From Candidatus Poriferisocius sp. (GTDB lineage: Bacteria; Actinomycetota; Acidimicrobiia; Acidimicrobiales; Bin134), in assembly GCF_965202595.1 (NCBI RefSeq), contig NZ_OZ241836.1, positions 535,095 to 599,094 of the forward strand: a stretch of 64,000 nt of DNA. Reading direction: 5' to 3'. How positions within the stretch are numbered: position 1 is the first letter of the stretch; each line of letters opens with the position of its first letter. The notes below the pieces were generated by a model. It made no database searches and was not told where the DNA came from. It worked only from the letters and a program-made list of their open reading frames with translations. Made by a program: the position numbers and the translations under genes. Below are positions 6,665-51,891 of this stretch, in pieces.

Positions 6665-6753
6665 CAACCGCCCTCGGTTCCGAGGAACTGGAGTACTGGG
6701 TCGTCTATTTGGTTGGATGCAGTTTCCATCAACCGCCCTCGGTTCCGAGGAAC
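6657..6753 (-). repeat. 32-bp direct repeat x2 (period 65) at the LivF/LivHMG junction
   Basis: gtttccatcaaccgccctcggttccgaggaac occurs at 6657-6688 and 6722-6753, separated by a unique 33-bp spacer. On the minus strand each copy carries TGATG. The upstream copy ends the MFS-LivF gene and the downstream copy starts LivHMG. Between them lies a 21-codon ORF, METASNQIDDPVLQFLGTEGG (6729 to 6664). Confidence 0.9.
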
Positions 6754-9032
6754 ACCGCCCGGGCCAGGTCGTCACGTTCGGCCAGTTCCTGGGCCGGACC
6801 CTCGAAACGGACCTGCCCCTTCTCGAGGAACACGGCCCGGTCGGCGATGGCCAGCGCCACGTTCAGCGACTGCTCCACGATGATCATGGTCTGGCCCCGG
6901 GCCTTGAGCCCCTCGACGGTTTCCAGCAGCGACTGCACGACCACGGGGGCCAGTCCCAGCGACAGCTCGTCGATTATCAGCACCTCGGGCTCATGCAGCA
7001 TCACCCGGGCCAACGCCAGCATCTGTTGCTGCCCGCCCGACAGGTTGGCGGCCCGCTCCCCGGGTCGTTTGGCCAGATTCGGGAACAGGTCGAACACCTT
7101 CTCGATGCGCCGGTCCCGGTCGTGGGAGTCCTTGCGGTAGGCGTAGGCACCCATGAGCAGGTTGTCGCTGATGGACATGTCGCTCCACACCCCGGCCCCT
7201 CCGGGCAGCATGTGCAGGCCCATGGCCGACCGCTGCTCGGGGGTGGCGAAGGTAATGGTTTGACCGTGCAGGCGCACCACACCCCGCTCGGGGGTGACCA
7301 GGCCGGTGATCACCCTGAGTGCGGTTGACTTGCCCGCTCCGTTGGTGCCCAGAAGGGCCAGCGTCTCCTGGCGGCCCACCTCGAAGCCGAGGTCGAACAG
7401 CACCTGAACCTGCCCGTAGCTGAAATCCACGTCGGCCACCTGGATGGCCGGTATTTCCTCGGGATCGGTTTCGGCCCGGCGGCGCTCCTCGGCCTGCTCC
7501 TCCTGGAGCTCTGCGACGATCAGGGAGAGGTCACGGCGGAGCCGCCCGGCCCCCCTCAGCACGAAGTAGGCCCCGATCGGCATGGCCGAGGCGGTGATGA
7601 GGGTGATGGCGGTCTGCTCGCCGAGCTCGTTCTGGAGGAAGCCGGCGATGATGCTGCCGCCCACCCCGCCCACCATGACCATGAAGAACGTCAAAAAGGC
7701 AGTGCCCATGCCCCGCAGGCGGTAGGGGAACACCGCCTGGATGGCGGGCTGTACCATGGCGAAGGCCCCGCCCAGCAGGGTGGAGTTGACCGCGGCGAAC
7801 ACCATGAACAGGGCGAGATCGGACATGGCGTACTGGATCGGTACCAGCACCCCGATGGGCACCAGCAACACGCCGATCATCCTCAGTGCCCGGTCGGGAT
7901 CTTGGCGGTAGGTGGCGTCGAATCGGCGCCCGACCACCGGTAGGAACATCATCAGCCCGATGCCCGCGGGGGCCACGGCCAGGCCGCGCTCCAGGGCGTC
8001 GAGGCCGAACTCCTCCTCCAGGAAGAACGACTGGATCGAGCCGGCGGGGAAGAGGGCGAAGCCCATCGCCGCGAACGCGATGGTCATGTTGCGGATGGTG
8101 TCGATGTTCCAGATACGGGTGAAGGCGGCCTCCACCGAGATGGGCATCTTGTCGTTCTGCACCAGGCCGGTTCCCAGCACTTCCTTTTGCTCCCACTGGC
8201 CCCGGGGCGGTTCCCGCAGCCAGAAGGCGAACACCGCGAGGGCGGCAGTGGGCAACCCGAGCAGGTAGAACGCCCAGCGCCAGCCGTCGTCGCCGCCCAT
8301 CCACACCGCGATGCCCCCGGCGAGTATCGGGCTGAGGGCCGCGAACACACGCCCCACGCCGGCGTTGGTGGCGAACATGCGGCCCCGGGTCTGAAGGGGG
8401 TAGGTGTCGGCCAGCATGCTGGGATGCACGGTGATGGTGTTGGCCTTGGACATTCCGGTGAGGAACCGAGCGAAGAAGAACATCAGGGCGTTCACCGCCG
8501 CTCCCGACAGCGCGCTGAAGGCGGCGAACGCCCCGCTGGCCAGCCCGACGATGGGGCCGCGCCGGAAGCGGTCGGCCATCCAGCCCATCGGCCCGGCCCC
8601 CAGCACGAAGAACATGAGCGACGCGGTGCTGATCGCGGTTATGGCCCCGTCGCTCACCCCGAAGCTCCTGCCGATGTCGGGTCCCAGGATGGCGACCGCG
8701 CTGTTCTCCAGCTCGTCCAGGCTGTTCAGCGCCAGTAGCACGAGAAATGTCCGGTAGCCCCCCTTCAGCAGGCCCTCCCTGAGGGTGGTCTCCTCGCCGC
8801 CCACGCCGGGGAGCAGGTCATCGGGGAACAGCACCTCGGCCTTATGGGCATCGCGCCGGGCAGCCTCACCCTCGAGCACCGTCGTAGCCAGAGCATCAAT
8901 GGTTTCGTCCCGGGTTTGGGATTCGTCCGGGTTCGGGGTTCCGTTCCCGGTTTGGGATTCGCCCCGGGTCTGCTCGCTGTCCAAATAGTCCCCCCGACTG
9001 TCGCGGGTATCGTCAAACCCGCATCGGCCCAT
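6729..9032 (-). CDS. MFS-type permease domain fused to a LivF-like ABC ATPase
   Basis: Multi-TM region with MFS motif A (GWMADRFRRGPIVGLASG). It is followed in frame by an ATPase (Walker A GTNGAGKST, LSGGQQQMLALARV, Walker B LIIDELSLGLAP) ending FLGTEGG*. Start is uncertain. ATG 9032 (MGRCGFDD) was chosen because the longer ORF runs through a repeat array and into the divergent gene. Confidence 0.7.
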   Translation of the reverse strand: MGRCGFDDTRDSRGDYLDSEQTRGESQTGNGTPNPDESQTRDETIDALATTVLEGEAARRDAHKAEVLFPDDLLPGVGGEETTLREGLLKGGYRTFLVLLALNSLDELENSAVAILGPDIGRSFGVSDGAITAISTASLMFFVLGAGPMGWMADRFRRGPIVGLASGAFAAFSALSGAAVNALMFFFARFLTGMSKANTITVHPSMLADTYPLQTRGRMFATNAGVGRVFAALSPILAGGIAVWMGGDDGWRWAFYLLGLPTAALAVFAFWLREPPRGQWEQKEVLGTGLVQNDKMPISVEAAFTRIWNIDTIRNMTIAFAAMGFALFPAGSIQSFFLEEEFGLDALERGLAVAPAGIGLMMFLPVVGRRFDATYRQDPDRALRMIGVLLVPIGVLVPIQYAMSDLALFMVFAAVNSTLLGGAFAMVQPAIQAVFPYRLRGMGTAFLTFFMVMVGGVGGSIIAGFLQNELGEQTAITLITASAMPIGAYFVLRGAGRLRRDLSLIVAELQEEQAEERRRAETDPEEIPAIQVADVDFSYGQVQVLFDLGFEVGRQETLALLGTNGAGKSTALRVITGLVTPERGVVRLHGQTITFATPEQRSAMGLHMLPGGAGVWSDMSISDNLLMGAYAYRKDSHDRDRRIEKVFDLFPNLAKRPGERAANLSGGQQQMLALARVMLHEPEVLIIDELSLGLAPVVVQSLLETVEGLKARGQTMIIVEQSLNVALAIADRAVFLEKGQVRFEGPAQELAERDDLARAVFLGTEGG

Positions 9033-9083
9033 CAGAGTAGCGTGGGGGGCCGGTAGGTAATCCACAAGCGGGGCAGGCGACTC

Positions 9084-9239
9084 ATGAACAAGCCGTTGAA
9101 CAAACCATCCAACGTTGTGAGCGAGCCGTTGAGCAAGCCATCCAACAGCAAACCATCCAACGTTGTGAGCGAGCCATCCAACAGCAAACCATCCAACGTT
9201 GTGAGCGAGCCATCCAACAGCAAACCATCCAACGTTGTG
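9084..9239. repeat. 36-bp tandem repeat, about 4 copies (one 48-bp variant)
   Basis: caaaccatccaacgttgtgagcgag recurs at 9101, 9149, 9185 and 9221 (periods 48, 36, 36). It lies in the divergent intergenic region between the MFS-LivF gene and the PNPOx-like gene. Confidence 0.9.
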
Positions 9240-9332
9240 GTTGTACTGTTGGACTCGTTGAACCGGCACATGTTGGGAAGCTACGGGGGTACCGAGTTCG
9301 AGACCCCGAACCTGGGGGTGGGTGATGGCTGA
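9084..9332 (+). pseudogene. possible 5' remnant of a sulfatase / alkaline-phosphatase-superfamily gene
   Basis: The plus-frame ORF ends ...KPSNVVVVLLDSLNRHMLGSYGGTEFETPNLGVGDG*. The segment VVVLLDSLNRHMLG.YG....TPNL resembles sulfatase N-termini, but the ORF stops after about 80 aa, where the next gene begins. Confidence 0.3.
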
Positions 9333-9357
9333 GGGTCGGGCCGGGCCCACGGTGCGG

Positions 9358-9795
9358 ATGTCGCCCGAGGAGTGCTGGGAGATGCTCGAGACCTCGGTCA
9401 ACGGCATCCTCACCACGCTCAGGGCCGACGGCCGGCCGGTGGCCCTCCCCGTCTGGTACGTCGTTTTGGATCGGAGGATCTACATGGTGACCCGGGGCAA
9501 GAAGGTGGTGCGGATCCGAAACGACCAGCGCTGCTCGTTGTTGGTGGAGTCGGGGGAGCGGTGGGCCGATCTGCGAGCGGTGCATATGGAGTGCACCGGC
9601 CGGGTGATCGAGCCCTCCGACGAGTTGGCCCAGCGAATCGGTAGGGCCCTCGACGACAAGTACGCCCCGTACCGGACCGCCCAGGACGCGATGCCCGGCC
9701 CAACCAGGGACTACTACCGCAAGAACCTAAATGCCACCATCGAGTTGACCCCGGTCGGCAAAATGCTCAACTGGGACAACCGCAAGCTGTTCTGA
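9358..9795 (+). CDS. pyridoxamine 5'-phosphate oxidase-fold (FMN/F420-binding) family protein
   Basis: About 145 aa with the split-barrel pattern (CWEMLETSVNGILTTLRADGRPVALPVWYVVLDRRIYMVTRGKKVVRIRND). ATG 9358 chosen. Confidence 0.6.
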   Translation: MSPEECWEMLETSVNGILTTLRADGRPVALPVWYVVLDRRIYMVTRGKKVVRIRNDQRCSLLVESGERWADLRAVHMECTGRVIEPSDELAQRIGRALDDKYAPYRTAQDAMPGPTRDYYRKNLNATIELTPVGKMLNWDNRKLF

Positions 9796-10558: not shown

Positions 10559-10612
10559 GAGTTGACCCCGGTGGGCAAAATGCTCAACTGGGACAACCGC
10601 AAGCTGTTCTGA
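10184..10612 (+). CDS. DUF4160 family protein with an aberrant C-terminal extension
   Basis: FYGIVIQMYYGDHSPPHFHARYGSYRAVIDIDS...LVIEWAAQHRRELSAAWRSAE is the DUF4160 core (about 85 aa). The ORF then continues about 55 codons and reads in frame into the duplicated ELTPVGKMLNWDNRKLF* of the right repeat copy. Confidence 0.6.
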   Translation: MPELCRFYGIVIQMYYGDHSPPHFHARYGSYRAVIDIDSLAVIGGCLTPRATGLVIEWAAQHRRELSAAWRSAERNENPGKTLPCRNRWEIADLAISASRGSDQDRSECPARRCSETLGSCGSQFELTPVGKMLNWDNRKLF

Positions 10613-10658
10613 AGATATTGGTTGCTGTTCTTGGTTGGTCGCCTTTGCAGTTCGCCGC
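10559..10658. repeat. right copy of the 100-bp direct repeat
   Basis: See 9742-9841; 99/100 identical. Confidence 0.95.
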
Positions 10659-17695: not shown

Positions 17696-18729
17696 ATGAG
17701 GCGGGGCACGGTTTCCTGGGCTAGCAGGTGACGGCCGATCTCGGCCGGTAACGAGTTGGCCGAGCCGAACAGCGTGTCCAGCACCAGCATCCGCTTCAGC
17801 CAGCGGTGAAAACGGTGCTCAGCCGTGAAGCCGATCCCGGCCAGTACCTGCTGGGCGTGGGTGGCGGTGGTGCGCGCCGCCCGGCCCGCCAGCGATTTGG
17901 CCAGCGCCGCCGGCAGGGGGTGGGGGTTGTGGATGCAGGACTCGGCCACCGAGCTTGCCCCCTCGATCTCAACCAGCGACTCGGCCAGCTTGTGCCGGAT
18001 GGCCTGGAACGATGCCACCGGCCGGCCGAACTGCACCCGGTTTAGGGCATGCCGGCAGGCCTCGTCCAGCATCCATCGCGCCCCCCCGAGGAGCTGGTGG
18101 GCCAGGGCAACTCGAGCGGCGACAACCGCTGAGTCCCAGGTGCCGCCCCCGGCCTGCCACTCGAGTTGATCAGCCGTGATCCGGGTGGCAACCCGGTGGT
18201 AGGCCCGCCCCGGATCCACCCCCGCGGCGGTGGATAGGGGGAGCAGCGAGGTATCCAGGCCGGCAATCTGGATCTTCCCGCCGCAGTCCACGGCCACCGT
18301 TGCCGTGGAGGCGTACCGGGCCCGAGCCGACACGAGCCCATCGATGGCAACGCGATTGCCCCGGTGAATGGCCGGTGCGGTGGATTTCAAGGGGGCGGGG
18401 AATACCGCGCAGGTTTGTATCGAGACCGCGACATTGAGGGCATGGGCTACCACGTCGTCGAGCAGCCCGGCTGCGGCCCCGGTGGTGCCCAGGGCTTTGA
18501 ACGCGGTGGCCGCGCCCCGGGCGGGGGCGGCGGCGAGCAACTCGGCCCAGCCCAGGTCGTAAAGCGCTTGGTCGGCCTCCCCCGGCCCGGCCGCGCCAAC
18601 CATGGCGGCCTCGAAACCACCGGCCAGCAAGGCCAGATCGTCGGCATCGGGGGTTTGGTTCACGATTCCGGTCCCGGGTCGAGGAGGTGTGGTTGTGGAC
18701 GCTGGTTCGGCATCGGGGGTTTGGTTCAC
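17686..18729 (-). CDS. acyl-CoA dehydrogenase-fold protein, probable non-catalytic partner subunit
   Basis: ACAD C-terminal domain (LGGARWMLDEACRHALNRVQFGRPVASFQAIRHKLAE). I see no Y/G-G-T-x-E-I-Q-like C-terminal motif. GTG 18729 overlaps the upstream ACAD stop (GTGA). An equivalent GTG at 18663 in the duplicate copy is an alternative start. Confidence 0.65.
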   Translation of the reverse strand: MNQTPDAEPASTTTPPRPGTGIVNQTPDADDLALLAGGFEAAMVGAAGPGEADQALYDLGWAELLAAAPARGAATAFKALGTTGAAAGLLDDVVAHALNVAVSIQTCAVFPAPLKSTAPAIHRGNRVAIDGLVSARARYASTATVAVDCGGKIQIAGLDTSLLPLSTAAGVDPGRAYHRVATRITADQLEWQAGGGTWDSAVVAARVALAHQLLGGARWMLDEACRHALNRVQFGRPVASFQAIRHKLAESLVEIEGASSVAESCIHNPHPLPAALAKSLAGRAARTTATHAQQVLAGIGFTAEHRFHRWLKRMLVLDTLFGSANSLPAEIGRHLLAQETVPRLIQL

Positions 18730-18753
18730 GATTCCGGTCCCAGGTCGAGGAGG
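18642..18753 (-). repeat. 46-bp direct repeat x2 (period 66) at the ACAD/ACAD junction
   Basis: cggcatcgggggtttggttcacgattccggtccc[g/a]ggtcgaggagg at 18642-18687 and 18708-18753, separated by a 20-bp spacer. The GTGA stop/start overlap is duplicated. The period is in frame and gives PGTGIVNQTPDA twice. Confidence 0.9.
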
Positions 18754-27172: not shown

Positions 27173-28186
27173 ATGACGGGTAATGCCCATCTTGTTGGCC
27201 AGCCGGCGCTGGATCATCACTGGTATCCGGTGGCCCTCACCGGGGACATAGCGCCGGGGCCGGTGGGGTATCGGGTGCTGGGCCGCCGCTACGTGCTGTG
27301 GCGTTGCGGGGATGGATCGCTCATCGCCGCCCCCGACCGCTGCCCCCACCGGGAGGCCCCGCTATCGGCCGGCCGCATGGTGGACGGGTGCTTGGAATGC
27401 CCTTATCACGGGTGGCGGTTCGGGCCCGGTGGCCGGTGCGAGCGGGTGCCGTCGTCACCGCCGGGTACACCGGTGCCGCCCAAGGCTCACTTGGCCACGG
27501 TTGAGGTGACCGAGCGCTATGGCCTGGTTTGGCTCTGCCCGGGCCGACCGTGGGGGCCGATCCCCCAGATTCCCCAGGAGACCGACCCCGAGTTCCGGCG
27601 GCTCAACACCCCGTTCCAGCAGTGGGCGGTGTCGGCCACCCGGGTGACCGACAACTTCATGGATTTCTCCCACTTCCCGTTCGTTCACACCGCCACTTTC
27701 GGTCTGGCCCAGGAGACGGTGGTGCCGCCGCTGGAGATGGTCGATCTGCCCGACGGCTACCGGGGTTACGCCTACGAGGTGAACGCCAACAACACCACCG
27801 ACGCCGGCCGGACAGTCACCGGCCAGGACATCGATGTGCTGCACCGCCGCATGACCACCGGTTACACGCTGCCGTTCTCGGTGCGCAGCACCATCACCTA
27901 TGAATCGGGCCTGGAGCACATCCTGTTGCTGCTGGCCACCCCGGTGGACGACACCAATACCCGGTTCAACTTCGTGGTGTGGCGCAACGACGATTTTTCG
28001 GTGCCGGCCGAGGAGATCATGAAGTTCGACCTGGCTATCGGGGCCGAGGACAAGGCCATGCTCGAGAAGCTGGAAGGGGTGCTGCCCATGGATCTGACCG
28101 CGACGGTCAGCGTGCAGTCCGACCGCCCCTCGGTGGAATGGCGCCGAAGCCTGGCCGCGCTGCTGGACGGTGGCGGGAACTCCTGA
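27173..28186 (+). CDS. Rieske (2Fe-2S) domain oxygenase (short VanA/PaO-like type)
   Basis: CPHREAPL...CPYHGWRF Rieske motif near the N-terminus, then DNFMDFSHFPFVH non-heme iron region. 337 aa from ATG 27173. Confidence 0.8.
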   Translation: MTGNAHLVGQPALDHHWYPVALTGDIAPGPVGYRVLGRRYVLWRCGDGSLIAAPDRCPHREAPLSAGRMVDGCLECPYHGWRFGPGGRCERVPSSPPGTPVPPKAHLATVEVTERYGLVWLCPGRPWGPIPQIPQETDPEFRRLNTPFQQWAVSATRVTDNFMDFSHFPFVHTATFGLAQETVVPPLEMVDLPDGYRGYAYEVNANNTTDAGRTVTGQDIDVLHRRMTTGYTLPFSVRSTITYESGLEHILLLLATPVDDTNTRFNFVVWRNDDFSVPAEEIMKFDLAIGAEDKAMLEKLEGVLPMDLTATVSVQSDRPSVEWRRSLAALLDGGGNS

Positions 28187-28227
28187 GGTTTCCCGCCGTC
28201 CCCGGTTTTGTTGTCGATGCTGTGCGG

Positions 28228-28300
28228 TACCCCCCCTGGGATTCGAACCCAGAACCTGCGGATTAAGAGTCCGTTGCTCTGCCAGTTGAGCTAGAGGGGC
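28228..28300 (-). tRNA. tRNA-Lys (anticodon CTT)
   Basis: The reverse complement gcccctctagctcaactggcagagcaacggaCTCTTAAtccgcaggttctgggttcgaatcccaggggggta folds as a cloverleaf. T-loop is ttcgaat. Ends are accurate to about 2 nt. Confidence 0.85.
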
Positions 28301-28307
28301 TTGTCAG

Positions 28308-28383
28308 GCGGACCGAGGGGATTTGAACCCCCGACCTCCGGGACCACAACCCGGCGCTCTAACCAGACTGAGCTACGGCCCGC
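28308..28383 (-). tRNA. tRNA-His (anticodon GTG)
   Basis: Reverse complement gcgggccgtagctcagtctggttagagcgccgggTTGTGGTcccggaggtcgggggttcaaatcccctcggtccgc, with an extra 5' G typical of tRNA-His. Confidence 0.85.
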
Positions 28384-28589
28384 AAGGAAGAGCCAGTCTA
28401 GGCCCAACGATGCCCGATGCGGAAACCGTTTGTTGCCGGCCGGATGCTTACCGCAAGCACCCCAACCCCCCGCCACCCTCCGACACGGCCAAACCCCCCA
28501 ACCAACCCCCGTCCCGCACCCAAACCAGCAGCCCAAACCCCTACCCGACCGCTAACCTGGCAATTACGCGCCACAATTCGCGCCAGCCC

Positions 28590-28664
28590 GCCCCTGTAGC
28601 TCAGTCAGGATAGAGCAGTTGACTTCTAATCATCAGGCCGCAGGTTCGAATCCTGCCGGGGGCG
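28590..28664 (+). tRNA. tRNA-Arg (anticodon TCT)
   Basis: gcccctgtagctcagtcaggatagagcagttgaCTTCTAAtcatcaggccgcaggttcgaatcctgccgggggcg, with the acceptor stem gcccctg/cgggggc. Confidence 0.8.
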
Positions 28665-28699
28665 CATGCCGATTGCGGGAGGGTCGTAGGCACCATGCC

Positions 28700-28712
28700 G
28701 GGGGGGGGGGGG
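28700..28712. repeat. G13 homopolymer abutting the tRNA-Gly 3' end
   Basis: 13 consecutive G between the convergent tRNA-Arg and tRNA-Gly genes. Confidence 0.85.
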
Positions 28713-28783
28713 AGCGGGTGACGAGAATCGAACTCGCGTCATCAGCTTGGAAGGCTGGGGTTCTACCACTGAACTACACCCGC
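28713..28783 (-). tRNA. tRNA-Gly (anticodon TCC)
   Basis: Reverse complement gcgggtgtagttcagtggtagaaccccagcCTTCCAAgctgatgacgcgagttcgattctcgtcacccgct. Confidence 0.85.
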
Positions 28784-28875
28784 GGGGCTGGTCACCAATG
28801 ATAACTGTTGGCCGCGGCAACCCCAATCGGCTACGACACGAGTATTCGGGGGGTGGCCGGTAAACTGGCGGGTCT

Positions 28876-30243
28876 GTGAGGAGCACCGTGGAAAGCCTGG
28901 AGGGCAACCGGGTAAAGGTGTCGGTGGACATCGACTGCGATGAGTTCGAGAAGAAGCTGGACCAGGCCTTCCGCAAGCTGGCCCACGAGGTTCGCCTGCC
29001 CGGATTCCGTCCCGGCAAAGCCCCCCGGCGGGTGCTGGAGGCTCGGATAGGTCCCCAGGCGGCCCGGGGGGAGGCCCTCAATGATGCGGTCCCCGAGTAC
29101 TACACCCGGGCCATCAATGATCACGATGTGGACGCGATCGCTCCGCCGGAGATCGACATCACCAGCGGGGCTGAGGACGGCCCGGTCAGCTTTGACGCGG
29201 TGGTGGAGATCCGCCCCTCTGTCACCGTCACCGGCTACGACCGGCTCAAGGTGGAGGTGCCCAGTCCCGAGCCCACCGAGGAGGAGATCAGCCGCCAGAT
29301 CGACCAGCTTCGCAAGCAGTTCGGCGAGTTGGCCTCGGTGGCCCGGCCCGTGCTTGACGGTGACAACGTGACCATGGACATTTACGGGTCGTACAACGGG
29401 GAGCAGGTCGAGGGTCTCACCGTGGACGACTACTCCTACGAGGTGAACCAGGAGTCATTGATTCCCGAGATCGACGAGCATCTCCGGGGATCCAAGGTCG
29501 GGGACATCCTGGAGTTCAACGCCCGCCACCCCGACCCCGCCGAGGACGGGCTGCTGAGGTTCCGCGTTCTCGTCAAGGAGGTGCAGGAGACTGTCCTGCC
29601 CGATCTGGACGACGAGTTTGTTCGGGAGGCCTCCGAGTTCGACACCGTTGACGAGTTGCAGGCCGACACGTCGGAGAGCATCGCCCGATCCAAACGGGCC
29701 AACACCTTGGAGTCTCTGATGCATCAGGTGGCGGAACAACTTGCCGGGCTGGTGACAGACGATGTTCCCGAGGCGTTGGTGGACACCGAGGTGCTGCGCC
29801 GCCTCCGAACCTTCCAGTTGCGCCTGGACAGCCAGGGGGTTGAGGTGGAGACCTACCTGGAGGCCATCGGCCAGACCACCGAAGAGCTGGTGGAGGCATT
29901 GCGGGGACCGGCCCTCATGGAGGTGAAGAGCGACCTGGCTCTGCGGGCGGTGGCTGCGGCTGAGGCAATCCAGGTTTCCGCCGAGGACATCGAATTGGAG
30001 ATGGCCCTGCTGGCCGCCCAGGTGGGCCTGACCGTCGATGAAATCAAGTCGTCGGTTCTGGGCGGCGACGAGAATCGCCTCAAGGGGGTGCGATTGGATG
30101 CTCTGATGCGCAAGACCCGGGGATGGGTCCTGGAGAGGGTCGAGATCACCGATGACGACGGAAACCCCCTGGAGTGGTCTAGCCTGAACCCAGACGACAA
30201 CTTCGAGCTTCCCCCGACTCTGAGTGAGAATCAAACCCCATGA
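28876..30243 (+). CDS. tig: trigger factor
   Basis: N-terminal ribosome-binding signature GFRPGKAP, then a PPIase-like middle and a C-terminal arm. GTG start at 28876. Confidence 0.9.
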   Translation: MRSTVESLEGNRVKVSVDIDCDEFEKKLDQAFRKLAHEVRLPGFRPGKAPRRVLEARIGPQAARGEALNDAVPEYYTRAINDHDVDAIAPPEIDITSGAEDGPVSFDAVVEIRPSVTVTGYDRLKVEVPSPEPTEEEISRQIDQLRKQFGELASVARPVLDGDNVTMDIYGSYNGEQVEGLTVDDYSYEVNQESLIPEIDEHLRGSKVGDILEFNARHPDPAEDGLLRFRVLVKEVQETVLPDLDDEFVREASEFDTVDELQADTSESIARSKRANTLESLMHQVAEQLAGLVTDDVPEALVDTEVLRRLRTFQLRLDSQGVEVETYLEAIGQTTEELVEALRGPALMEVKSDLALRAVAAAEAIQVSAEDIELEMALLAAQVGLTVDEIKSSVLGGDENRLKGVRLDALMRKTRGWVLERVEITDDDGNPLEWSSLNPDDNFELPPTLSENQTP

Positions 30244-30423
30244 ACCCCCAGAACTGCTTCGAGCTTCCCCCGACTCTGAGTGAGAATCAAACCCCATGAA
30301 CCCCCAGAACTGCTTCGAGCTTCCCCCGACTCTGAGTGAGAATCAAACCCCATGAACCCCCAGAACTGCTTCGAGCTTCCCCCGACTCTGAGTGAGAATC
30401 AAACCCCATGAACCCCCAGAACT
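30201..30423 (+). repeat. 56-bp tandem repeat x4 spanning the tig stop and clpP start
   Basis: The unit cttcgagcttcccccgactctgagtgagaatcaaaccccatgaacccccagaactg starts at 30201, 30257, 30313 and 30369. The copies read as identical. ATGA occurs at 30240, 30296, 30352 and 30408. The first TGA ends tig and the last ATG starts clpP. The three between delimit 19-codon ORFs, [19 protein letters not shown]. Confidence 0.95.
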
Positions 30424-31040
30424 ACATGGTGCCCGTCGTGGTCGAGCAGACCAACCGGGGGGAGCGGTCATTTGACCTTTACTCCCGCCTTCTCAAGGAG
30501 AACATCATCTTCTTGGGCACCCCGATCGATGACACGGTGGCCAACCTCATCTGTGCCCAGTTGCTGCACCTGGAGTCGGAGAACCCCGACAAGGACATCA
30601 ACCTCTACATCAACAGCCCCGGTGGTGACATAAACGCCATGTTCGCCATCTACGACACCATGCAGTACCTGAAGCCCGACATCACCACCATCTGCTTCGG
30701 GCAGGCGGCCTCGGCCGCCGCGGTGCTGCTGGCGGCGGGCGCACCCAACAAGCGCCTGGCGTTGCCCCACGCCCGGATGCTCATCCACCAGCCCTACGCC
30801 GGGGCATCGGGGCAGGTGTCCGACATCGAGATCGCCTCCCGGGAGATCCAGCGGCTCAAGGACCAGTTGGAGGAACTCCTGGCCCGCCACACCGGCCAGG
30901 ATATCGAGAAGATCAAGCAGGACACCGACCGCGACTACGTGATGACCGCCAACGATGCCAAGGAGTACGGGCTGATAGACGAGGTGATCTCGTCCCGGGA
31001 TGCCGCCGACAACTCCGGGCCGATCACGGCCATCCGGTAA
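30408..31040 (+). CDS. clpP: ATP-dependent Clp protease proteolytic subunit
   Basis: [21 protein letters not shown], catalytic Ser in [11 protein letters not shown], His in MLIHQP, Asp in DTDRDYVM. Confidence 0.9.
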
Positions 31041-31054
31041 GGGGATCTGGGACC

Positions 31055-32296
<1,242 letters not shown>

Positions 32297-32326
<30 letters not shown>

Positions 32327-32452
32327 TCGCTCGATGCCCACGGATTACCCCATGTCTTCGGACCGGTCCCGGCGCGAGGCGAGCTGATCGCTCGATGCCC
32401 ACGGATTACCCCATGTCTTCGGACCGGTCCCGGCGCGAGGCGAGCTGATCGC
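32297..32452 (+). repeat. 61-bp tandem repeat, about 2.6 copies, starting in the last codons of clpX
   Basis: ggaccggtcccggcgcgaggcgagctgatcgctcgatgcccacggattaccccatgtcttc starts at 32299, 32360 and 32421. Each added copy holds an 11-codon [14 protein letters not shown] (ATG 32352 and 32413), ending with the clpX C-terminal residues. Confidence 0.95.
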
Positions 32453-32501
32453 AAAGTCGCCCACCAGATCTTTCGGATCTCTCGACGAGGCTCGGGCGTG
32501 G

Positions 32502-33824
32502 TTGGATACCCACATCAACCTGGAGGCCACCGCCGGGGATACCCGCGGCCTGTCGCTGGCACCGATGCGGGAGTTGTTGAGCGCGCTGGGAGATCCGCAG
32601 GCCGACTACCCGGCCATCCACATAACCGGCACCAACGGTAAGGGTTCGGTGGCCGCGCTGGTGGCCGCGCTGGCCTCGAGGTGGGGGATGACGGTGGGGA
32701 CCTACACCAGCCCCCATGTCGAGCGTATCAACGAGCGAATGGCCGTGGGTGGCGACCCCATAAGCGATCCCGAGCTGGCCGAGCTGTTGAGCCATCTGCG
32801 GCTGGTGGTGGACCACATTGCTGCTCACCCGGGTTCTGGTATTCACACGGGTTCGGGCCTTAACACGGGTTTTGGTCCGCCGTCGTGGTTCGAGCTGGTC
32901 ACCGCCGCCGCCCTGCGCTGGTTCGCCGATGCGGCGGTAAACCTGGCGGTGGTGGAAGTGGGCAAGCTGGGTCGCTACGACGCCACCAACGTGGTGAACA
33001 GCCGGGTGGCGGTTATCACCAACATCGGCCGCGACCACACCGATGGTCGACCCGGCTGGGAGGCGGAGGTCATGGGGGAGAAAGCAGGCATAATCCATCC
33101 CGGGGTCACCGCCGTTTTGGGGCCGATGGCACCTGAGCTGGTTGAAATAGCCTCTGGGGAGTCACCGGGGGATTTGCTGGTTGCCGGTGAGCATTTCGAG
33201 CTCGAGGAGAACCGCCCGGCGGTGGGGGGCCGGCTCATCACGGTACGCACCCCCCGGGCTCGCTATGAGGATGTTTATGTCAGCTTGTTCGGTGCCCATC
33301 AGGGGGATAACGCCGCGGTGGCTCTCACCGCTTTTGAGGCTCTGGCCGGCTGCGTGCTGGATGAGCCGCTGCTCGATGGGCTCGGGGAGGTGACTGTCCC
33401 GGCCCGCTTCGAAGTGGTGGCCCGCCGACCCCTGGTGGTGATCGACGGTGCCCACAACCCCGATGGGGTGGCCGCCACCGCCGCCACCCTGCGGGATCAG
33501 TTCAGCGTGTCCGGAGCGATCATCTGGGTCATCGGCATCATGCGCGACAAAGACCTGGATGCGATGCTGGCTGCCCTCGAACCAGCCGGTGCCCGCCGGA
33601 ACCGGGTGATCTGCTGCGCCCCCCGCTGGCCCCGCGCCCTACCGGCTCGGGACCTGGCCGCCGCGGTCCGAAACCGGGGGCTGGATGCCGAGATTGCCGA
33701 TGATGTCACCGGCGCGGTGGACACAGCCCTGGCTTCGGCCACTGCAAAGGACGCGGTGGTTGTGACCGGTTCCATGTACACCGCCGGGGAGGCCCGCTTT
33801 CACATGGCGGCCCACGATCGTTAA
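32502..33824 (+). CDS. folC: bifunctional folylpolyglutamate synthase / dihydrofolate synthase
   Basis: ITGTNGKGS P-loop and Mur-ligase middle and C-terminal domains. The frame is open upstream to 32388, and SLDEARAW precedes the listed TTG. The true start may therefore be upstream, possibly the CTG at 32445 overlapping the last repeat TGA. Confidence 0.85.
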   Translation: MDTHINLEATAGDTRGLSLAPMRELLSALGDPQADYPAIHITGTNGKGSVAALVAALASRWGMTVGTYTSPHVERINERMAVGGDPISDPELAELLSHLRLVVDHIAAHPGSGIHTGSGLNTGFGPPSWFELVTAAALRWFADAAVNLAVVEVGKLGRYDATNVVNSRVAVITNIGRDHTDGRPGWEAEVMGEKAGIIHPGVTAVLGPMAPELVEIASGESPGDLLVAGEHFELEENRPAVGGRLITVRTPRARYEDVYVSLFGAHQGDNAAVALTAFEALAGCVLDEPLLDGLGEVTVPARFEVVARRPLVVIDGAHNPDGVAATAATLRDQFSVSGAIIWVIGIMRDKDLDAMLAALEPAGARRNRVICCAPRWPRALPARDLAAAVRNRGLDAEIADDVTGAVDTALASATAKDAVVVTGSMYTAGEARFHMAAHDR

Positions 33825-35387: not shown

Positions 35388-36245
35388 TTGGGCCCCGTGC
35401 CAGCGGGCACCCGCACCGGACGGTCGCGAGCAACGCTTGTCTTCCTGCTGCTCAGCTCAGTGACCCTTCTCACTCTGGATGCCCGTGGCTTCGAGCCCCT
35501 CCAGCGAACGGAAGAAACGCTGATGGATCTGATGTCACCATTTCGTTCAGCGGCGAACCGGCTGTTCAATCCGGTGGGCGATGCCTGGAAAGGCATGACC
35601 GGTTATGCCGAGCTGGAATCCGAGAATGTGATGCTGCGGGACGAACTCCAAAAACTCGAGGCTCAGCGCATTCTCGATTCCGATGCGGCCGTTCGCCTGG
35701 AATCGCTGCTCAAGGAACTGGATCTGCCCTATGTGCAGGCCATTCCCAACACCGTGGCGGAGGTGGTTACCGCCAATGTGGGCAACTTCGACCGGTACTC
35801 GGTGCAGATCAACCGGGGGTCCGAGGACGGGATCCGTAACGGGATGCCGGTCGTCACCAGGGGCGGGTTGATCGGGCGGATCGATGGTGACCCCGGGCGG
35901 CGGCATTCCCGGGTGACGCTTCTCACCGATCCCGAGTTCGAGGTGGGGGTGCTGGTGGTGGGAACCGACGACGTGGGATTGGCCTCGGGGGGTGGACATG
36001 GGAATGCGCTGAGGGTTGACAAGGGCTTGGAGGTCGATACCGAGGTAGCCGTTGGGGATGAGGTTGTCACCAGCGGTGTGGATCGCAGCCGTTACCCCCC
36101 CGGCATACCCATAGGCACGGTTACCAGGATCGAATTCGACGAGGCCCGCCTGCTCCAGGTTCTCATCGTGGAGCCCTCGGCCGATACCGATAACTTGAGC
36201 TTCGTGACCGTGCTGCTCTACGACCCCCTGGGCGAGGGCCCATGA
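35388..36245 (+). CDS. mreC: rod shape-determining protein MreC
   Basis: Position after mreB. N-terminal TM helix, coiled coil (ELESENVMLRDELQKLEAQ), beta-rich C-terminal domains. Confidence 0.85.
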   Translation: MGPVPAGTRTGRSRATLVFLLLSSVTLLTLDARGFEPLQRTEETLMDLMSPFRSAANRLFNPVGDAWKGMTGYAELESENVMLRDELQKLEAQRILDSDAAVRLESLLKELDLPYVQAIPNTVAEVVTANVGNFDRYSVQINRGSEDGIRNGMPVVTRGGLIGRIDGDPGRRHSRVTLLTDPEFEVGVLVVGTDDVGLASGGGHGNALRVDKGLEVDTEVAVGDEVVTSGVDRSRYPPGIPIGTVTRIEFDEARLLQVLIVEPSADTDNLSFVTVLLYDPLGEGP

Positions 36246-36349
36246 GTTCAAAGGGCAGTGGGCGAGGGCCTGTGAGTCCAAAGGGCAGGATGAGCTTGCG
36301 ACCCCCTGGGCGAGGGCCCGTGAGTCCAAAGGGCAGGATGAGGCGGTGA
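36221..36349 (+). repeat. nested 30/48-bp repeats filling the mreC-mreD junction
   Basis: tgggcgagggcc[c/t][a/g]tgagt[t/c]caaagggcag at 36229, 36259 and 36307. cgaccccc precedes copies 1 and 3. A 35-codon ORF runs from ATG 36242 (ATGA with the mreC stop) to TGA 36347-36349 (GTGA with the mreD start). Confidence 0.9.
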
Positions 36350-36852
36350 ACACGGCGAGTGGCTATGTCCGCAGCGCCCTGTTTCTTTTCACCGTGCTGG
36401 TGCTTCATCTGACGTTGTTCTCCGATCTGCGGGTATTCGGGGTTGCGCCCGAGGTGCCGCTGGCCGTGGCGGTCACCGCCGGTTTGGTGGGGGGACCGCA
36501 GCGGGGGGCAACCGCCGGGTTCGTGATCGGCTTGGGCATGGATCTTTACCTGCCCACGCTGTTCGGTCTTTCCGCTCTCATCTACACCGTGTGGGGCTAC
36601 GCGGTGGGTTTGCTGGAAGAGCGGATCATCCGCAGCGCCTGGTGGATAAACGTCCTGGTTGCTGCGGTGGCCACCGCGGGAGGGCTGCTGGTGTACGCGG
36701 TGCTGGGTGAGCTGCTGGGCGAGGCCAACCTCTATACCGAGCACCTCTACGTGGTCATGGGGGTGGCCGCGGCCTACAACCTGGTGTTGAGCCTGCCCCT
36801 TTTGGGTATGTGGCGCTGGTCGTGGGTTCGACTGTTGGCGGAGGAGTCGTGA
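36346..36852 (+). CDS. mreD: rod shape-determining protein MreD
   Basis: 168-aa polytopic membrane protein located between mreC and mrdA. Confidence 0.8.
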   Translation: MNTASGYVRSALFLFTVLVLHLTLFSDLRVFGVAPEVPLAVAVTAGLVGGPQRGATAGFVIGLGMDLYLPTLFGLSALIYTVWGYAVGLLEERIIRSAWWINVLVAAVATAGGLLVYAVLGELLGEANLYTEHLYVVMGVAAAYNLVLSLPLLGMWRWSWVRLLAEES

Positions 36853-36893
36853 GCCCGGAGTCATTGCGGTTGGCGGAGGAGTCGTGAGCCCGG
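36835..36893 (+). repeat. 25-bp direct repeat x2 (period 35) at the mreD/mrdA junction
   Basis: ttggcggaggagtcgtgagcccgga at 36835-36859 and 36870-36894. GTGA occurs at 36849 and 36884. Between them lies a 12-codon ORF, VSPESLRLAEES* (36849-36887). Confidence 0.9.
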
Positions 36894-38968: not shown

Positions 38969-40122
38969 TGTCGGTGATCTCCATGGAGGATCGCCGATCT
39001 CGGGATCCGAACACCCGGGACAGCCAGTACGCGCCCTGGTTGCACATCGATCTGCTGCTGATTCTGGCCGTGGCCGGCTTGACGGCAATCGGCATTGTGG
39101 CCATTTACAGCACCACTCGGGGCCGGGATCCCGAGAACTTCGATACTTTCTTTCTGGATCGGCAGTTGCTCTTCGGGGTGGCCGGAGCGTTGCTCATGAT
39201 CTTTGTGGCCTGGATGCCCTACCACGAGCTGTCCAAGTTCGCCGTGGCCATCTACGGCGTGGGCATTCTGGCTCTCATAGTGGTGCTGGGACCGCTGGGC
39301 CAGGAGGTTAACGGTGCCCGGTCGTGGTTCCGGGTCGGCGACGTACAGCTCCAGCCGTCGGAGTTCCAGAAAATCGTGGTGATCGTGGCGATGGCCGCCT
39401 TTTTGTCCCGCTTCGAGGACCACATGGACGTGACCAGGGTGTTTTTGGCCGTGGGCATGGTTGCGTGGCCGGGCCTTCTGGTCCTGCTCCAGCCGGATGT
39501 GGGTACGGCGCTGATTTACGTGTTCATCGGATTCGCCATGCTCCTGATCGGCGGGATTCGCTTGCGCCAGGTGATCGGAATCGCCTTGATCGCCACCACG
39601 GTTGTAACCCTCATGATCAACTCCAACATGTTGGAGGAGTACCAGACCAACCGGCTCCGGACGTTTGTGGATCCCTCCAGCGACATCACCGAGGCGGCTT
39701 TCCAGCAGCGCCAGGCCCAGATAGCCATCGGCAACGGCGGGGTGAGCGGCACCGGCTACGGCGAGGGTTCCCAGACCCTGAGCGGCTTGGTGCCCCAGCA
39801 GCACACCGACTTCATCTTCACGGTGATCGGTGAGGAGTTCGGCTTCATAGGGGCGGCCGCCACCCTGGCGCTTTACGCCATCCTTCTGTTGCGGATCCTC
39901 CAGGCCGCTCGCTTGGCCCGGGACCGGTTGGGCACGCTGATCTGCTCGGGGGTTTTCGCCATGATCCTGTTCCAGATGTTCGAGGCGGTGGGCATGACCC
40001 TGGGCATTACCCCCATCACCGGTATCCCCCTGCCCCTGGTTTCCTACGGCGGTTCCTCGGCCATCGCCACCCTCATCGGCATCGGCCTGGTCATCAACGT
40101 GCGGATGCGCCGGTTCGTCTGA
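38968..40122 (+). CDS. rodA: peptidoglycan glycosyltransferase RodA (FtsW/RodA/SpoVE family)
   Basis: ATG overlaps the mrdA stop (TGATG). SEDS motifs QPSEFQKI and QQHTDFIF. About 10 TM helices. Confidence 0.9.
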   Translation: MSVISMEDRRSRDPNTRDSQYAPWLHIDLLLILAVAGLTAIGIVAIYSTTRGRDPENFDTFFLDRQLLFGVAGALLMIFVAWMPYHELSKFAVAIYGVGILALIVVLGPLGQEVNGARSWFRVGDVQLQPSEFQKIVVIVAMAAFLSRFEDHMDVTRVFLAVGMVAWPGLLVLLQPDVGTALIYVFIGFAMLLIGGIRLRQVIGIALIATTVVTLMINSNMLEEYQTNRLRTFVDPSSDITEAAFQQRQAQIAIGNGGVSGTGYGEGSQTLSGLVPQQHTDFIFTVIGEEFGFIGAAATLALYAILLLRILQAARLARDRLGTLICSGVFAMILFQMFEAVGMTLGITPITGIPLPLVSYGGSSAIATLIGIGLVINVRMRRFV

Positions 40123-40180
40123 TCCGCTCTGAGGGGTTTGGTCTGCGCCGGTTCGTCTGATCCGCTCGGAGGGATTTGAT
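40106..40180 (+). repeat. about 36-bp direct repeat x2 (period 38) duplicating the rodA 3' end
   Basis: tgcgccggttcgtctgatccgctc at 40106-40129 and 40144-40167, with similar tails (gaggggtttg / gagggatttg). Each copy contains RRFV*. Confidence 0.9.
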
Positions 40181-40216
40181 CTGAGAACCCGGTCCGGGGG
40201 CGGTACATTTAGGTAG

Positions 40217-42865: not shown

Positions 42866-44695
42866 ATGACCGACTCCACGGAGCGGACTGGCAAAAAGTC
42901 AGCCAGCAACGCGCCACAGGCTAAGCCACAGGCTAAGCCACAGGCTAAGCCACAGGCTAAGCCACAGGCTAGTCCCAGGATTGGGGATTCCCGGCCGGCA
43001 CCGTCTGGGGATCGTCCCAGGATTGGGGATTCCCGCCCGGCACCGGTGCCGTCTGGTGGTCGTCCCAGGATTGGGGATTCCCGGCCGGCACCCGCGGGCA
43101 ACGGATCCGGTGCGGGTGGGGCTCCGGGTTCGGGGGCCAAAGACTCCGGTGCGGGTGGGGCTCCGGGTTCGGGGGCCAAAGACTCCGGTGCGGGTGGGGC
43201 TCCGGGTTCGGGGGCCAAAGACTCCGGTGAGGGTGGGGCTCCGGGTTCGGGGGCCAAAGACTCCGGTGAGGGCCGTGGGCGTCGGCGTCGTCGGGGCGGC
43301 CGAGGTCGCGGTGGCGGCCGTCCCGTTCAGCCGGTGGAGCACCAGGTGTCCGACGGCCCGGTGGAGCTGGATGAGAAAACCTTGCAGCGGAGGCGGGGTC
43401 GGCGCCGCAAGGGCCGGCCGGTGGGTCGGTACATGATGCTCGTGCAGGTTCGTCCCGAGGCCACCCAGATTGCCGTCGTCGAGGGTCGAGCGCTGATTGA
43501 GCACTACGTTTCCCGGCCCGCGGACGATGTGAACGAGATCCACGGCAACATCTATCTGGGCCGGGTGCAAAACGTGCTGCCCGGTATGGAGGCTGCCTTC
43601 GTGGACATAGGCACCCCCAAAAATGCAGTGCTGTACCGGGGGGACCTGGTGTTCGACCCCGATGAGGTGGAAACCACCAATGGGGCTCCTCGCATCGAGA
43701 ACCTGCTGGAGGCCCGCCAGACCGTCCTGTGCCAAGTCACCAAGAACCCCATAGCCCACAAGGGGGCCCGGTTGACCCAGGAGGTGTCGCTCCCCGGCCG
43801 GTTCGTGGTGCTGGTTCCCAATTCCAAGACCTATGGCATCTCCAAGCGGCTTCCCGACCGGGAGCGCAAGCGGCTCCGCCGGGTGCTGGACCGCTGCAAG
43901 CCGGACGCACACGGGCTGATCGTCCGAACCGTGGCCGAGAACATCACCGCTGAGGAGCTGGAACGAGACGTGGGGCGGTTGGTTTCCCAGTGGGAGCGAA
44001 TCGATGATCTGGCCAAGCGGGTGCGGGTTCCGGGGCTGCTCTACCGGGAGCCGGAGATGGCGGTTCGGGTCATCCGTGAGGAGTTCAACCAGGATTTCCG
44101 CTCGGTTCATATCGACGATCCCCGGCTCTTCGAGGAGGTGAACGACTACGTGTCCAGCGTGGCCCCGGAGCTGGTCGAGAGGCTTCACTACTACGATGCG
44201 AGCAGTGAGCGCCTAGATCTTTTGGAGCGCTACCACGTGCATGAGCAACTGGTCAGGGCTTTGGACAAGAAGGTGTGGTTGCCGGGCGGCGGGTCACTGA
44301 TCATCGAGAACACGGAGGCGCTCACGGTTATCGACGTGAACACCGGTAAGAACGTCGGCAGCTCCAATCTGGAGGAGACCGTGTTTCGCAACAACCTGGA
44401 GGCGGCCCGGGAGATTCCCCGCCAGCTCCGGCTGCGCGACATAGGGGGGATCATCGTGATCGATTTCGTGGACATGGACAAGCGGGTGAACCGCGAAGAG
44501 GTCATGAAGGTGTTCCGGGAGTCGCTGGCTTGGGACAAGACCCGCACGCAGGTACTGGACATCTCCGATCTGGGCCTGGTGGAGATGACCCGCAAGCGCA
44601 TAGGCGAGGGTCTGCTGGAATCGTGCTCATCCACCTGCCCGACCTGCAATGGCCGGGGCCTGGAGCTGGACCGCCAACTGGTATCGAGTAGCTGA
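42866..44695 (+). CDS. rne: ribonuclease E/G family protein with a repeat-rich N-terminal extension
   Basis: S1 domain (IYLGRVQNVLPGMEAAFVDIG), DNase-I-like/5' sensor region, IDFVDM, C-terminal CPTCNGRG zinc link. The first about 150 aa are tandem repeats plus an RRRRGGRGRGGGR tract. Confidence 0.9.
   Translation: MTDSTERTGKKSASNAPQAKPQAKPQAKPQAKPQASPRIGDSRPAPSGDRPRIGDSRPAPVPSGGRPRIGDSRPAPAGNGSGAGGAPGSGAKDSGAGGAPGSGAKDSGAGGAPGSGAKDSGEGGAPGSGAKDSGEGRGRRRRRGGRGRGGGRPVQPVEHQVSDGPVELDEKTLQRRRGRRRKGRPVGRYMMLVQVRPEATQIAVVEGRALIEHYVSRPADDVNEIHGNIYLGRVQNVLPGMEAAFVDIGTPKNAVLYRGDLVFDPDEVETTNGAPRIENLLEARQTVLCQVTKNPIAHKGARLTQEVSLPGRFVVLVPNSKTYGISKRLPDRERKRLRRVLDRCKPDAHGLIVRTVAENITAEELERDVGRLVSQWERIDDLAKRVRVPGLLYREPEMAVRVIREEFNQDFRSVHIDDPRLFEEVNDYVSSVAPELVERLHYYDASSERLDLLERYHVHEQLVRALDKKVWLPGGGSLIIENTEALTVIDVNTGKNVGSSNLEETVFRNNLEAAREIPRQLRLRDIGGIIVIDFVDMDKRVNREEVMKVFRESLAWDKTRTQVLDISDLGLVEMTRKRIGEGLLESCSSTCPTCNGRGLELDRQLVSSS
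42914..43264 (+). repeat. three consecutive in-frame repeat arrays in the rne 5' region
   Basis: 12 bp (ccacaggctaag, QAKP) about x4.9 at 42914-42972. 42/48 bp (cccaggattggggattcccgNccggcacc...) x3 at 42972-43092. 39 bp (ggtgcgggtggggctccgggttcgggggccaaagactcc) x4 starting at 43109, 43148, 43187 and 43226. Confidence 0.9.
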
Positions 44696-51862: not shown

Positions 51863-51891
51863 CACCACCACGATTTCGGGGCCAGATCGGG

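Follow-up and report, generated by a model that had tools for sequence, protein, structure and literature searches.

A four-copy repeat of the tig-clpP stop/start overlap in Candidatus Poriferisocius sp., probably a self-templated duplication tolerated through preserved coupling

Introduction

Overlapping stop and start codons are the commonest gene junction in prokaryotes and, to our knowledge, the strength of selection on the coupling of such overlaps is hard to show outside reporter assays. In 64,000 nucleotides of Candidatus Poriferisocius sp. (contig NZ_OZ241836.1, positions 535,095 to 599,094 of the forward strand; hereafter the window), one such junction, that between tig (trigger factor) and clpP, is present four times in perfect tandem. 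How did this array arise, and what does it mean for the translation of clpP? A first-pass annotation of the window had presented the array as a one-off, a view that has to be given up: the window has at least six duplicated stop/start junctions, this one included, and a number of gene 3' ends are duplicated in it as well. We argue here that the array is probably a young, lineage-specific and self-templated stop/start duplication, expanded by slippage and tolerated because coupling is kept.

Results

The tig-clpP array is built of 55-nt copies joined by single G's

The array occupies positions 30201-30423 and is 223 nt long, corresponding to 3.98 units. Tandem Repeats Finder (TRF) calls a period of 56, 4.0 copies, 100% matches and 0 indels with a score of 446, and the raw sequence agrees with this call; these are head-to-tail, fully identical copies of a unit within the 10-100-bp range of VNTRs or minisatellites. 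The first-pass annotation had described four identical 56-bp copies. The copies are indeed four and identical, but the raw letters resolve into copies of exactly 55 nt (segment A) with three 1-nt G fillers between them. Since the base before the first copy, in tig, is A and the base after the last copy, in clpP, is also A, the joining G is templated by neither flank. Segment A consists of the last 43 nt of tig (TGA included) overlapping the first 16 nt of clpP, and every boundary in the array is a -4 overlap, with ATGA at 30240, 30296, 30352 and 30408. The features of the locus, including three small open reading frames (mini-ORFs), are as follows.

30201..30423, + strand: tandem array, four 55-nt segments A separated by single G's
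30201-30255, 30257-30311, 30313-30367 and 30369-30423, + strand: copies of segment A, 55 nt each
30256, 30312 and 30368, + strand: joining single G's, non-templated
30240..30299, + strand: mini-ORF 1, 19 codons and a stop; overlaps the tig TGA with its ATG and the next ATG with its TGA
30296..30355, + strand: mini-ORF 2, same as mini-ORF 1
30352..30411, + strand: mini-ORF 3, same as mini-ORF 1; its TGA (30409-30411) overlaps the clpP ATG at 30408
28876..30243, + strand: tig (trigger factor), ORF from GTG 28876; TIGR00115, E 6.5e-97
30408..31040, + strand: clpP, 210 aa; NF001368, E 5.7e-94
31055..32326, + strand: clpX, E 4e-199; begins 14 nt 3' of clpP

Translation of the mini-ORFs gives one 19-residue peptide three times, each TGA lying within the next ATGA, and the peptide is made up of ClpP residues 1-5, a Cys and the last 13 residues of Tig. 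Both this composition and the frame arithmetic that places the four ATGA sites had been worked out correctly in the first-pass annotation. In the window there are four occurrences of a 30-nt core of the unit, against none in 100 dinucleotide-preserving shuffles; with up to 3 mismatches allowed, this core is found within the 64 kb only in the four array copies. The tig stop (TGA, 30241-30243) falls within the first ATGA. TIGR00115 spans Tig residues 12-417, so that the final ~38 residues form a non-conserved tail. The clpP start at 30408 is the genuine start, as the N-terminal motif M[NRK]PQNYMVP is kept among relatives. Directly upstream of tig, at 28226-28783, lie four tRNA genes (Lys-CTT, His-GTG, Arg-TCT and Gly-TCC).

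Relatives carry a single junction

The closest genomes are metagenome-assembled genomes (MAGs) of Acidimicrobiales, several of which are named Candidatus Poriferisocius. ClpP of the close relatives is 93-96% identical to that of the window, at a DNA identity of about 81-84%. In all 14 close relatives (L002-L014 and L082, the latter being the sole one added by a protein-guided metagenome scan), tig and clpP meet at a single ATGA junction in which ...ccaaaccacATGAaccctcagaactacatgg is present once. At least six of the 14 are chromosome-level assemblies, and repeat collapse is therefore not the explanation for the single junction. Aligned to these relatives, the window shows a clean 168-nt insertion relative to one homologous copy, and the unit aligns base for base with their single-copy junction.

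The same state is widespread in the class. Among 148 tig-clpP junctions of Acidimicrobiia, the overlap is -4 in 59 and -1 in 22, and the remainder are mostly within 15 nt. The -4 overlap is thus the commonest state, and the array retains it, one of the two spacings (-4 and -1) taken here to indicate coupling. None of the 148 loci has a tandem repeat at this junction. The claim that the ancestral junction was a single ATGA overlap is hereby borne out, and the single junction in relatives and class indicates that the expansion is specific to the lineage of the window. Because the 168 duplicated bases are without a difference, the array appears young relative to the ~18% divergence from the nearest relatives; the identity of the copies fits the recent expansion proposed in the first-pass annotation, with homogenisation as the alternative source of that identity.

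Other repeats are found around tig elsewhere in the order. Large perfect intergenic arrays lie upstream of tig in other Acidimicrobiales (L034 495-1017, L036 631-891 and L063 559-896; 105 bp x5, 36 bp x7.2 and 121 bp x2.8), and one locus has an in-frame 45-bp duplication within the Tig C-terminal tail (L091 1344-1431).

A second contig has the same array

A second contig of the organism (ENA ERZ26693861, ctg136020_3x_l, 84.6 kb) came up when ClpP was looked up by exact protein match. Exact look-ups of Tig, ClpP, RodA, MreB and acyl-CoA dehydrogenase each returned just two contigs, the longer of which is 3,037,168 bp. Compared in three pieces covering window positions 8726-50122, this sister contig is 99.86-99.97% identical to the window, with few substitutions and mostly 1-3-nt indels. 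It has the same four-copy tig-clpP array, and all other arrays in the compared stretch are equal in copy number; the inter-copy junction CAGAACT-G-CTTCGAG is present in both. On the sister contig the gene caller starts tig at GTG 28888, giving 451 aa. The copy number is thus four in both contigs of this organism in the collections, and a scan of metagenome contigs for the array with an exact 29-mer gave no match. The sister contig is independent support for the structure of the array and is uninformative on polymorphism.

The period requires a non-templated base

The tetranucleotide AACT is present in tig at 30199-30202 and in clpP at 30252-30255. A simple origin through this microhomology predicts a period of 53, and a blunt duplication predicts 55; neither gives the observed 56, and at least one non-templated base is therefore needed. 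We propose that an illegitimate duplication took in the 55 nt surrounding the ATGA and inserted a single non-templated G, whence the period of 56, and that slipped-strand mispairing or unequal recombination between the identical units would then have taken two copies to four. The 16-mer across the inter-copy junction was found among 168 loci only in the sister contig, and the unit is in none of the other 166 loci. An 8-mer common to the tig-clpP unit and a 28-nt filler at the clpX 3' end (described below), ACCCCATG, was considered as a link between these two arrays and is treated as coincidence; it has nine sites in the window against 4.4 expected, a number reached in 2 of 100 shuffles, and six of the nine lie within the two arrays.

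Duplicated junctions mostly keep the stop/start relay frame

The segment that was duplicated extends across the junction, so that tig is completed by the first copy and an intact clpP begins in the last. What happens between them depends on the period. With a period of 2 mod 3, the ORF that begins at a copied clpP ATG enters the copied tig frame and stops at the next TGA, so that ATGA is kept. In two-copy models, a period of 55 gives a 12-codon ORF whose stop lies 16 nt before the next ATG, and a period of 57 a 14-codon ORF whose stop lies 12 nt before it, whereas periods of 53 or 56 keep the -4 overlap. An unbroken relay is obtained only with a period of 2 mod 3. A period of 56 at one locus has a prior of 1 in 3 and is uncompelling by itself.

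Unbiased scans for short-range duplications, the matches of which were then read, revealed five further duplicated stop/start junctions in the window.

36849-36887, + strand: mreD-pbp2, GTGA at 36849 and 36884, period 35; 12-codon bridge MSPESLRLAEES with GTGA at both ends
36221-36349, + strand: mreC-mreD, ATGA at 36242 to GTGA at 36346, period 104; 35-codon bridge
6664-6732, - strand: MFS/ABC-ATPase fusion gene (6729..9416) to ABC permease, TGATG at 6729 and 6664, period 65; 21-codon bridge METASNQIDDPVLQFLGTEGG
59429-59488, - strand: sulfite reductase-cysH, ATG at 59488 and 59441, period 47; 19-codon bridge MRNLTIPSPSVVGDSECAT
18641-18753, - strand: acyl-CoA dehydrogenase-like pair, GTGA at 18729 and 18663, period 66, open in frame

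In the mreD-pbp2 duplication the core is identical at 24/24 positions, and the tail differs by three substitutions; a single ATGA stands at this junction in relatives L164-L166. The 35-codon mreC-mreD bridge of the window is built from three diverged copies of the mreC 3' end. At the MFS/ABC-permease junction a 31-nt segment is 100% identical between copies, with a 34-nt filler, and the sulfite reductase and cysH genes overlap by 13 nt. The acyl-CoA dehydrogenase pair, with a 47-nt segment of 98% identity and a 19-nt filler, is the case in which the downstream gene acquires, through the duplication, an alternative start and is extended by 22 residues at the N-terminus.

Two further junction duplications are found in relatives.

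L165 15002-15070 and L166 15123-15191: mreC-mreD insert of 65 nt, 22-codon bridge with ATGA at both ends
L164-L168, e.g. L165 20781-20825: radical-SAM/DUF2344 duplication of 41 nt, 14-codon bridge with NTGA at both ends

The 65-nt mreC-mreD insert is present in L165-L168 and differs from the insert of the window, and L164, which is 96-97% identical to L165, has a plain overlap. The radical-SAM/DUF2344 duplication is conserved in three lineages; at the corresponding place the window has one junction only (TAAtgcGTG near 42113). In both of these bridges the length and the two overlaps are kept between species that are ~92% DNA-identical, while the bridges themselves diverge to roughly 70% identity, as counted from the sequences.

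Thus, over the eight junction duplications in the window and its relatives, seven periods (56, 35, 65, 104, 47, 65 and 41) are 2 mod 3, one (66) is 0 mod 3 and the class of 1 mod 3 is empty. For at least 7 of 8 at 1/3, the binomial probability is 0.0026. Start-less duplications of gene 3' ends show no such frame bias, with periods of 61 (clpX), 38 (rodA), 53 (RNase E/G), 38 (the array at 51891), 817 (PNPOx) and 34 (at 17634). This frame bias is the strongest evidence here that a junction duplication survives or not according to whether it preserves the relay.

Gene 3' ends in the window are duplicated as well

Five of the duplications that lack a start codon, among them an array between convergent genes, are listed below.

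32298-32452, + strand: clpX 3' end, perfect A-B-A-B-A, where A is 33 nt and B a 28-nt filler
40106-40183, + strand: rodA stop-codon duplication, 38 bp, 92% identity
44685-44773, + strand: RNase E/G 3'-end duplication, period 53
51891-51993: 38-bp x2.7 array between convergent genes, covering the 3' end of the one on the minus strand
9742-9841 and 10559-10658, + strand: direct repeat of the 3' end of a PNPOx-like gene, 100 nt, 99% identical, flanking a 717-nt insert

At the clpX 3' end, A comprises the last 29 nt of the gene (TGA included) and 4 nt more, the filler B is unique in the window and each B-A encodes 11 residues; this array is absent in 13 relatives and identical in the sister contig. 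The rodA duplication is also found in L165-L167 (L165 18754-18835) and is absent in L164. The 717-nt insert in the PNPOx-like repeat is a small cassette that contains a DUF2442 and a DUF4160 gene and shows no integrase, and the DUF4160 ORF runs on into the duplicated PNPOx tail. Across the sister events, at junctions and at 3' ends alike, the fillers are 0, 14, 19, 28, 34 and, once, 717 nt. That so many junctions and 3' ends are duplicated within 64 kb argues for a general mutational process filtered by selection and not for a dedicated regulator of clpP. Tandem arrays (period at least 20, identity at least 90%) number six in the 64 kb of the window and 11 in 646 kb of the relatives' loci, a comparison of qualitative value only, since short-read assembly and the conservation of those loci both confound it.

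Repeats of other kinds also occur in the window. The RNase E/G homologue (42866-44695, + strand) has its Pfam domain at residues 308-578 and a highly repetitive N-terminal region with in-frame, near-perfect repeats (12-bp x4.9, 48-bp x2.7 and 39-bp x4.3). The spacer between the MFS/ABC and PNPOx genes contains a near-perfect 36-bp x3.1 repeat (9130-9239), which may belong to a putative 82-aa repetitive ORF (9084-9332, + strand; …SEPSNSKPSNVV…) or to an N-terminal extension on the minus strand.

Reinitiation from tig is the likely main route to clpP

The 25 nt upstream of clpP pair with the anti-Shine-Dalgarno (anti-SD) sequence at -4.8 kcal/mol, which is no better than background: random 25-mers of the window average -5.5, and 57% of them pair at least as well. 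clpX, which has an SD of its own, and tig score -8.0 and -8.3 kcal/mol. In the close relatives the clpP value is -4.3 to -4.4, except in L012 (-6.9). A consensus scan of 28000-33000 detected no sigma-70-like promoter and no intrinsic terminator. The RNA of the array is less stable than that of shuffled sequences (z = +1.09), and a search of the window against Rfam matched tRNAs only, with no cis-regulatory match at the array; a structured RNA or riboswitch was ruled out by these two results. Hence, with no SD above background, no promoter or terminator and a conserved overlap, termination-reinitiation from tig is likely the main route to clpP, and clpP translation probably depends on it. Neither an independent clpP promoter nor an SD, either of which would have spoken against the link to translation made in the first-pass annotation, was found in silico, and that link is plausible, with indirect support from these features, from the unstructured RNA and from the frame bias.

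What is known of coupled pairs bears on how such a relay would work. Of 14 pairs with 4-nt overlaps that were tested, 13 proved strictly coupled (Huber et al. 2019, PMC6728339). Reinitiation needs no more than the final 15 nt of the upstream gene, and a spacing of ~20 nt nearly abolishes it (Huber et al. 2023, PMC10666635). As the unit contains 43 nt of the tig 3' end and 16 nt of the clpP 5' end, the native context is reproduced at every boundary. Ribosomes would accordingly have to reinitiate four times, passing from tig to mini-ORF 1, 2 and 3 and then to clpP, with the 19-residue peptides as by-products. ClpP synthesis would stay coupled to that of Tig and would probably be attenuated by the product of the step efficiencies; the output would also include any de novo initiation at the four identical sites. 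clpX would be a downstream member of the operon, and the supply of its ClpP partner would depend on the array. That the array 'sets' ClpP output, as first suggested, can be put forward as an inference only.

Discussion

The array resembles MIRU arrays and probably differs in origin

Our search of the literature on duplicated gene overlaps found no precedent other than the MIRUs (mycobacterial interspersed repetitive units). In two sources that cite Supply et al. 1997 (PMC12548453 and PMC3184786), MIRUs are tandem intercistronic units with ORFs coupled to the flanking genes at -4 spacing; these and PMC4213456 describe, again after Supply et al. 1997, a dispersed family of about 40-50 loci that is thought to insert by transposition at start codons. 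The senX3-regX3 spacer contains three 77-bp units in H37Rv and two 77-bp units with one 53-bp unit in CDC1551, and this spacer has promoter activity (PMC4213456). The tig-clpP array shares with MIRU variable-number tandem repeats (VNTRs) of the M. tuberculosis complex the placement of tandem 40-100-bp units between two co-transcribed genes, and the small ORF in each unit that overlaps its neighbours' start and stop by 4 nt, so that coupling would be preserved; translation confirms the ORFs here. Both have units with a length of 2 mod 3 (77 and 53 bp in MIRU, 56 here; the arithmetic is ours), units within an array can be identical, and both hosts belong to the phylum Actinomycetota.

The differences concern the defining points. 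MIRU is dispersed, whereas the present unit is at its own locus alone (64 kb and 168 loci); MIRU is foreign to its site, whereas here the unit is the single-copy junction of the relatives in three further copies with one G each, and the sister events of this genome each copy another local junction. Copy-number variation between strains is documented for MIRU, and both contigs here have four copies; promoter activity of the spacer is known for MIRU, and none was detected here; and the MIRU host is Mycobacterium, whereas this is an Acidimicrobiales MAG near Candidatus Poriferisocius. By its sequence, the array would work like a MIRU array and appears to be a self-templated variant of one, and membership in the MIRU family fails on the defining points.

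Other known systems match in part. As in coupled ATGA/TGATG pairs (PMC6728339, PMC10666635), the array has canonical -4 boundaries, four of them, each with more than 15 nt of native upstream 3' sequence, and several strictly coupled pairs have, like clpP here, a weak or absent SD on the downstream gene; known cases, however, consist of one junction between two full-length genes, without three 19-codon relay ORFs in between. In 'ribosome delivery' by short upstream ORFs (uORFs) and in bicistronic designs (PMC12548453), a short functionless ORF likewise overlaps the target start and delivers ribosomes, but those ORFs are single, usually have their own SD and stand at the 5' end of the transcript, whereas the present ones are repeated and fed by a highly expressed upstream gene. 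With VNTRs or minisatellites in general the array shares perfect head-to-tail copies, a 10-100-bp unit and a location at a gene boundary, and it differs in that it spans an overlapping stop/start and has a period confined to one residue class. It is not a leader-peptide attenuator or regulatory uORF, because there is no RNA structure (z = +1.09), no terminator and no Rfam match, and it is not a classical phase-variation switch, because whole units leave clpP and the chain in register and change only the number of relay steps.

Alternative explanations

An assembly or sequencing artefact, in which the true genome has one junction and the repeat was inflated by the assembler or the consensus, would be a natural suspicion for a metagenome-assembled chromosome, since perfect tandem repeats are a classic site of copy-number errors and the confirming contig has, going by its name, only 3x coverage. 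Against this, the separately assembled contigs match exactly in every array over 41 kb and both contain the novel junction CAGAACT-G-CTTCGAG; the array of 223 nt is far below long-read size, if the contig name is rightly taken to indicate a long-read assembly; older duplications of the same type, already diverged (91-98% identity), cannot be assembly errors; and homologous junction inserts in relatives come from both short-read and long-read assemblies. We regard an artefact as very unlikely. Equally hard to sustain is a mobile, MIRU-like element that would have inserted by targeting start codons, with a coupled ORF of its own. It would account for the same architecture of intercistronic tandem units with 4-nt overlaps (PMC12548453 and PMC3184786) and for a length of 2 mod 3, as in the MIRU units of 77 and 53 bp (PMC4213456), but apart from one G the unit is wholly native tig tail and clpP head, it occurs nowhere else in the window or in the 166 other loci, it has no terminal inverted repeats or RNA structure, and the sister events each duplicate their own local junction. 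Least credible of all is that the 19-residue peptides themselves have a function, for instance as small proteins that act on ClpXP or Tig. A working relay would yield the peptide from three identical copies, yet the peptide is a chimera of two gene ends and one junction codon, it is absent from all relatives, and the analogous bridging ORFs are unrelated in sequence, those that are conserved keeping length and frame and not residues.

Two further alternatives concern expression. Each unit could contain an internal promoter or leaderless start, such that clpP and the mini-ORFs are expressed independently of tig and the array multiplies promoters. The hexamer GAGAAT stands 8 nt upstream of every ATG, and leaderless mRNAs are common in Actinomycetota (as cited in PMC12548453, ref. 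75). The MIRU-containing senX3-regX3 spacer, moreover, has promoter activity (PMC4213456). The scan, however, found no promoter-like site, GAGAAT does not have the conserved first T of a -10 element, relatives have GAGCCA in its place, and the class-wide ATGA overlap favours co-translation with tig; this explanation seems to us improbable. Somewhat more room, though still as an unlikely case, has to be given to an adaptive tuner or contingency locus, in which the relay steps were selected for shifting the ClpP:Tig ratio, by attenuation or by a boost from extra initiation, and in which slippage-driven changes in copy number would let a population vary its ClpXP dosage. The perfect units in more than two copies, the period that preserves coupling, the lack of an SD of its own at clpP, the differing composition of the senX3-regX3 MIRU array between strains (PMC4213456) and the related junction inserts that are present or absent between L164 and L165 (~96-97% identical) all point in this direction. 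On the other side, no copy-number polymorphism was observed at the locus (two contigs, both with four copies), the absence of the array from 14 of 14 close relatives means that it is not a conserved regulatory feature, and like duplications at unrelated junctions and at plain gene 3' ends fit a general mutational process better.

We therefore favour a young self-templated duplication, kept because coupling survives it, and several points weigh against this interpretation. The two assemblies may share one sample and a near-clonal population. Reinitiation at each ATGA is carried over by analogy from work in E. coli and Haloferax, the anti-SD used was the canonical bacterial 16S 3' end and not the host's own, the window being without a 16S gene, and the promoter scan covers sigma-70-type two-hexamer sites; the weak -10-like GAGAAT 8 nt upstream of every ATG makes leaderless initiation possible. 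The frame statistic is based on eight events, two of which, at mreC-mreD, may share ancestry, in which case P = 0.007. Finally, stop-spanning duplications number at least 11 in the window and purely intergenic ones ~3, over comparable target sizes, and uniform mutation with purifying selection does not obviously predict such an excess; it may reflect mutation focused on gene boundaries, or selection that goes further than tolerating such changes. A more far-reaching proposal can be made: an active, boundary-focused process would copy 24-100 nt around stops, with fillers of 0-34 nt and once of 717 nt, and would repeatedly make relay mini-ORFs, from which selection keeps those in the reinitiation frame; tig-clpP would be its youngest and still expanding product, tuning ClpP against Tig, and the process would supply raw material for MIRU-type elements and new small ORFs. 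We put this forward tentatively, as a minority possibility.

Implications

Taken as a duplication that is tolerated, the tig-clpP array is possibly a mildly dose-shifting structural variant and a potential VNTR, and not a device dedicated to regulation. Its two neighbours are abundant proteostasis genes, and the ratio between them may matter; the array offers a ready allelic series, of one to four steps in identical context, for the efficiency of serial reinitiation. It suggests, further, that MIRU-like intercistronic repeats, N-terminal extensions and de novo small ORFs can arise in a simple, self-templated way and, if its copy number varies, it would provide a strain marker for an uncultured sponge symbiont. 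The duplications together amount to a natural experiment, in which the same type of mutation has occurred at many coupled junctions and the survivors almost all keep the chain of 4-nt overlaps; this pattern among survivors is population-genetic evidence of selection on coupling itself. A single array would be a curiosity with a known analogue, whereas a recurrent, frame-filtered class of such duplications is a useful natural test of selection on translational coupling.

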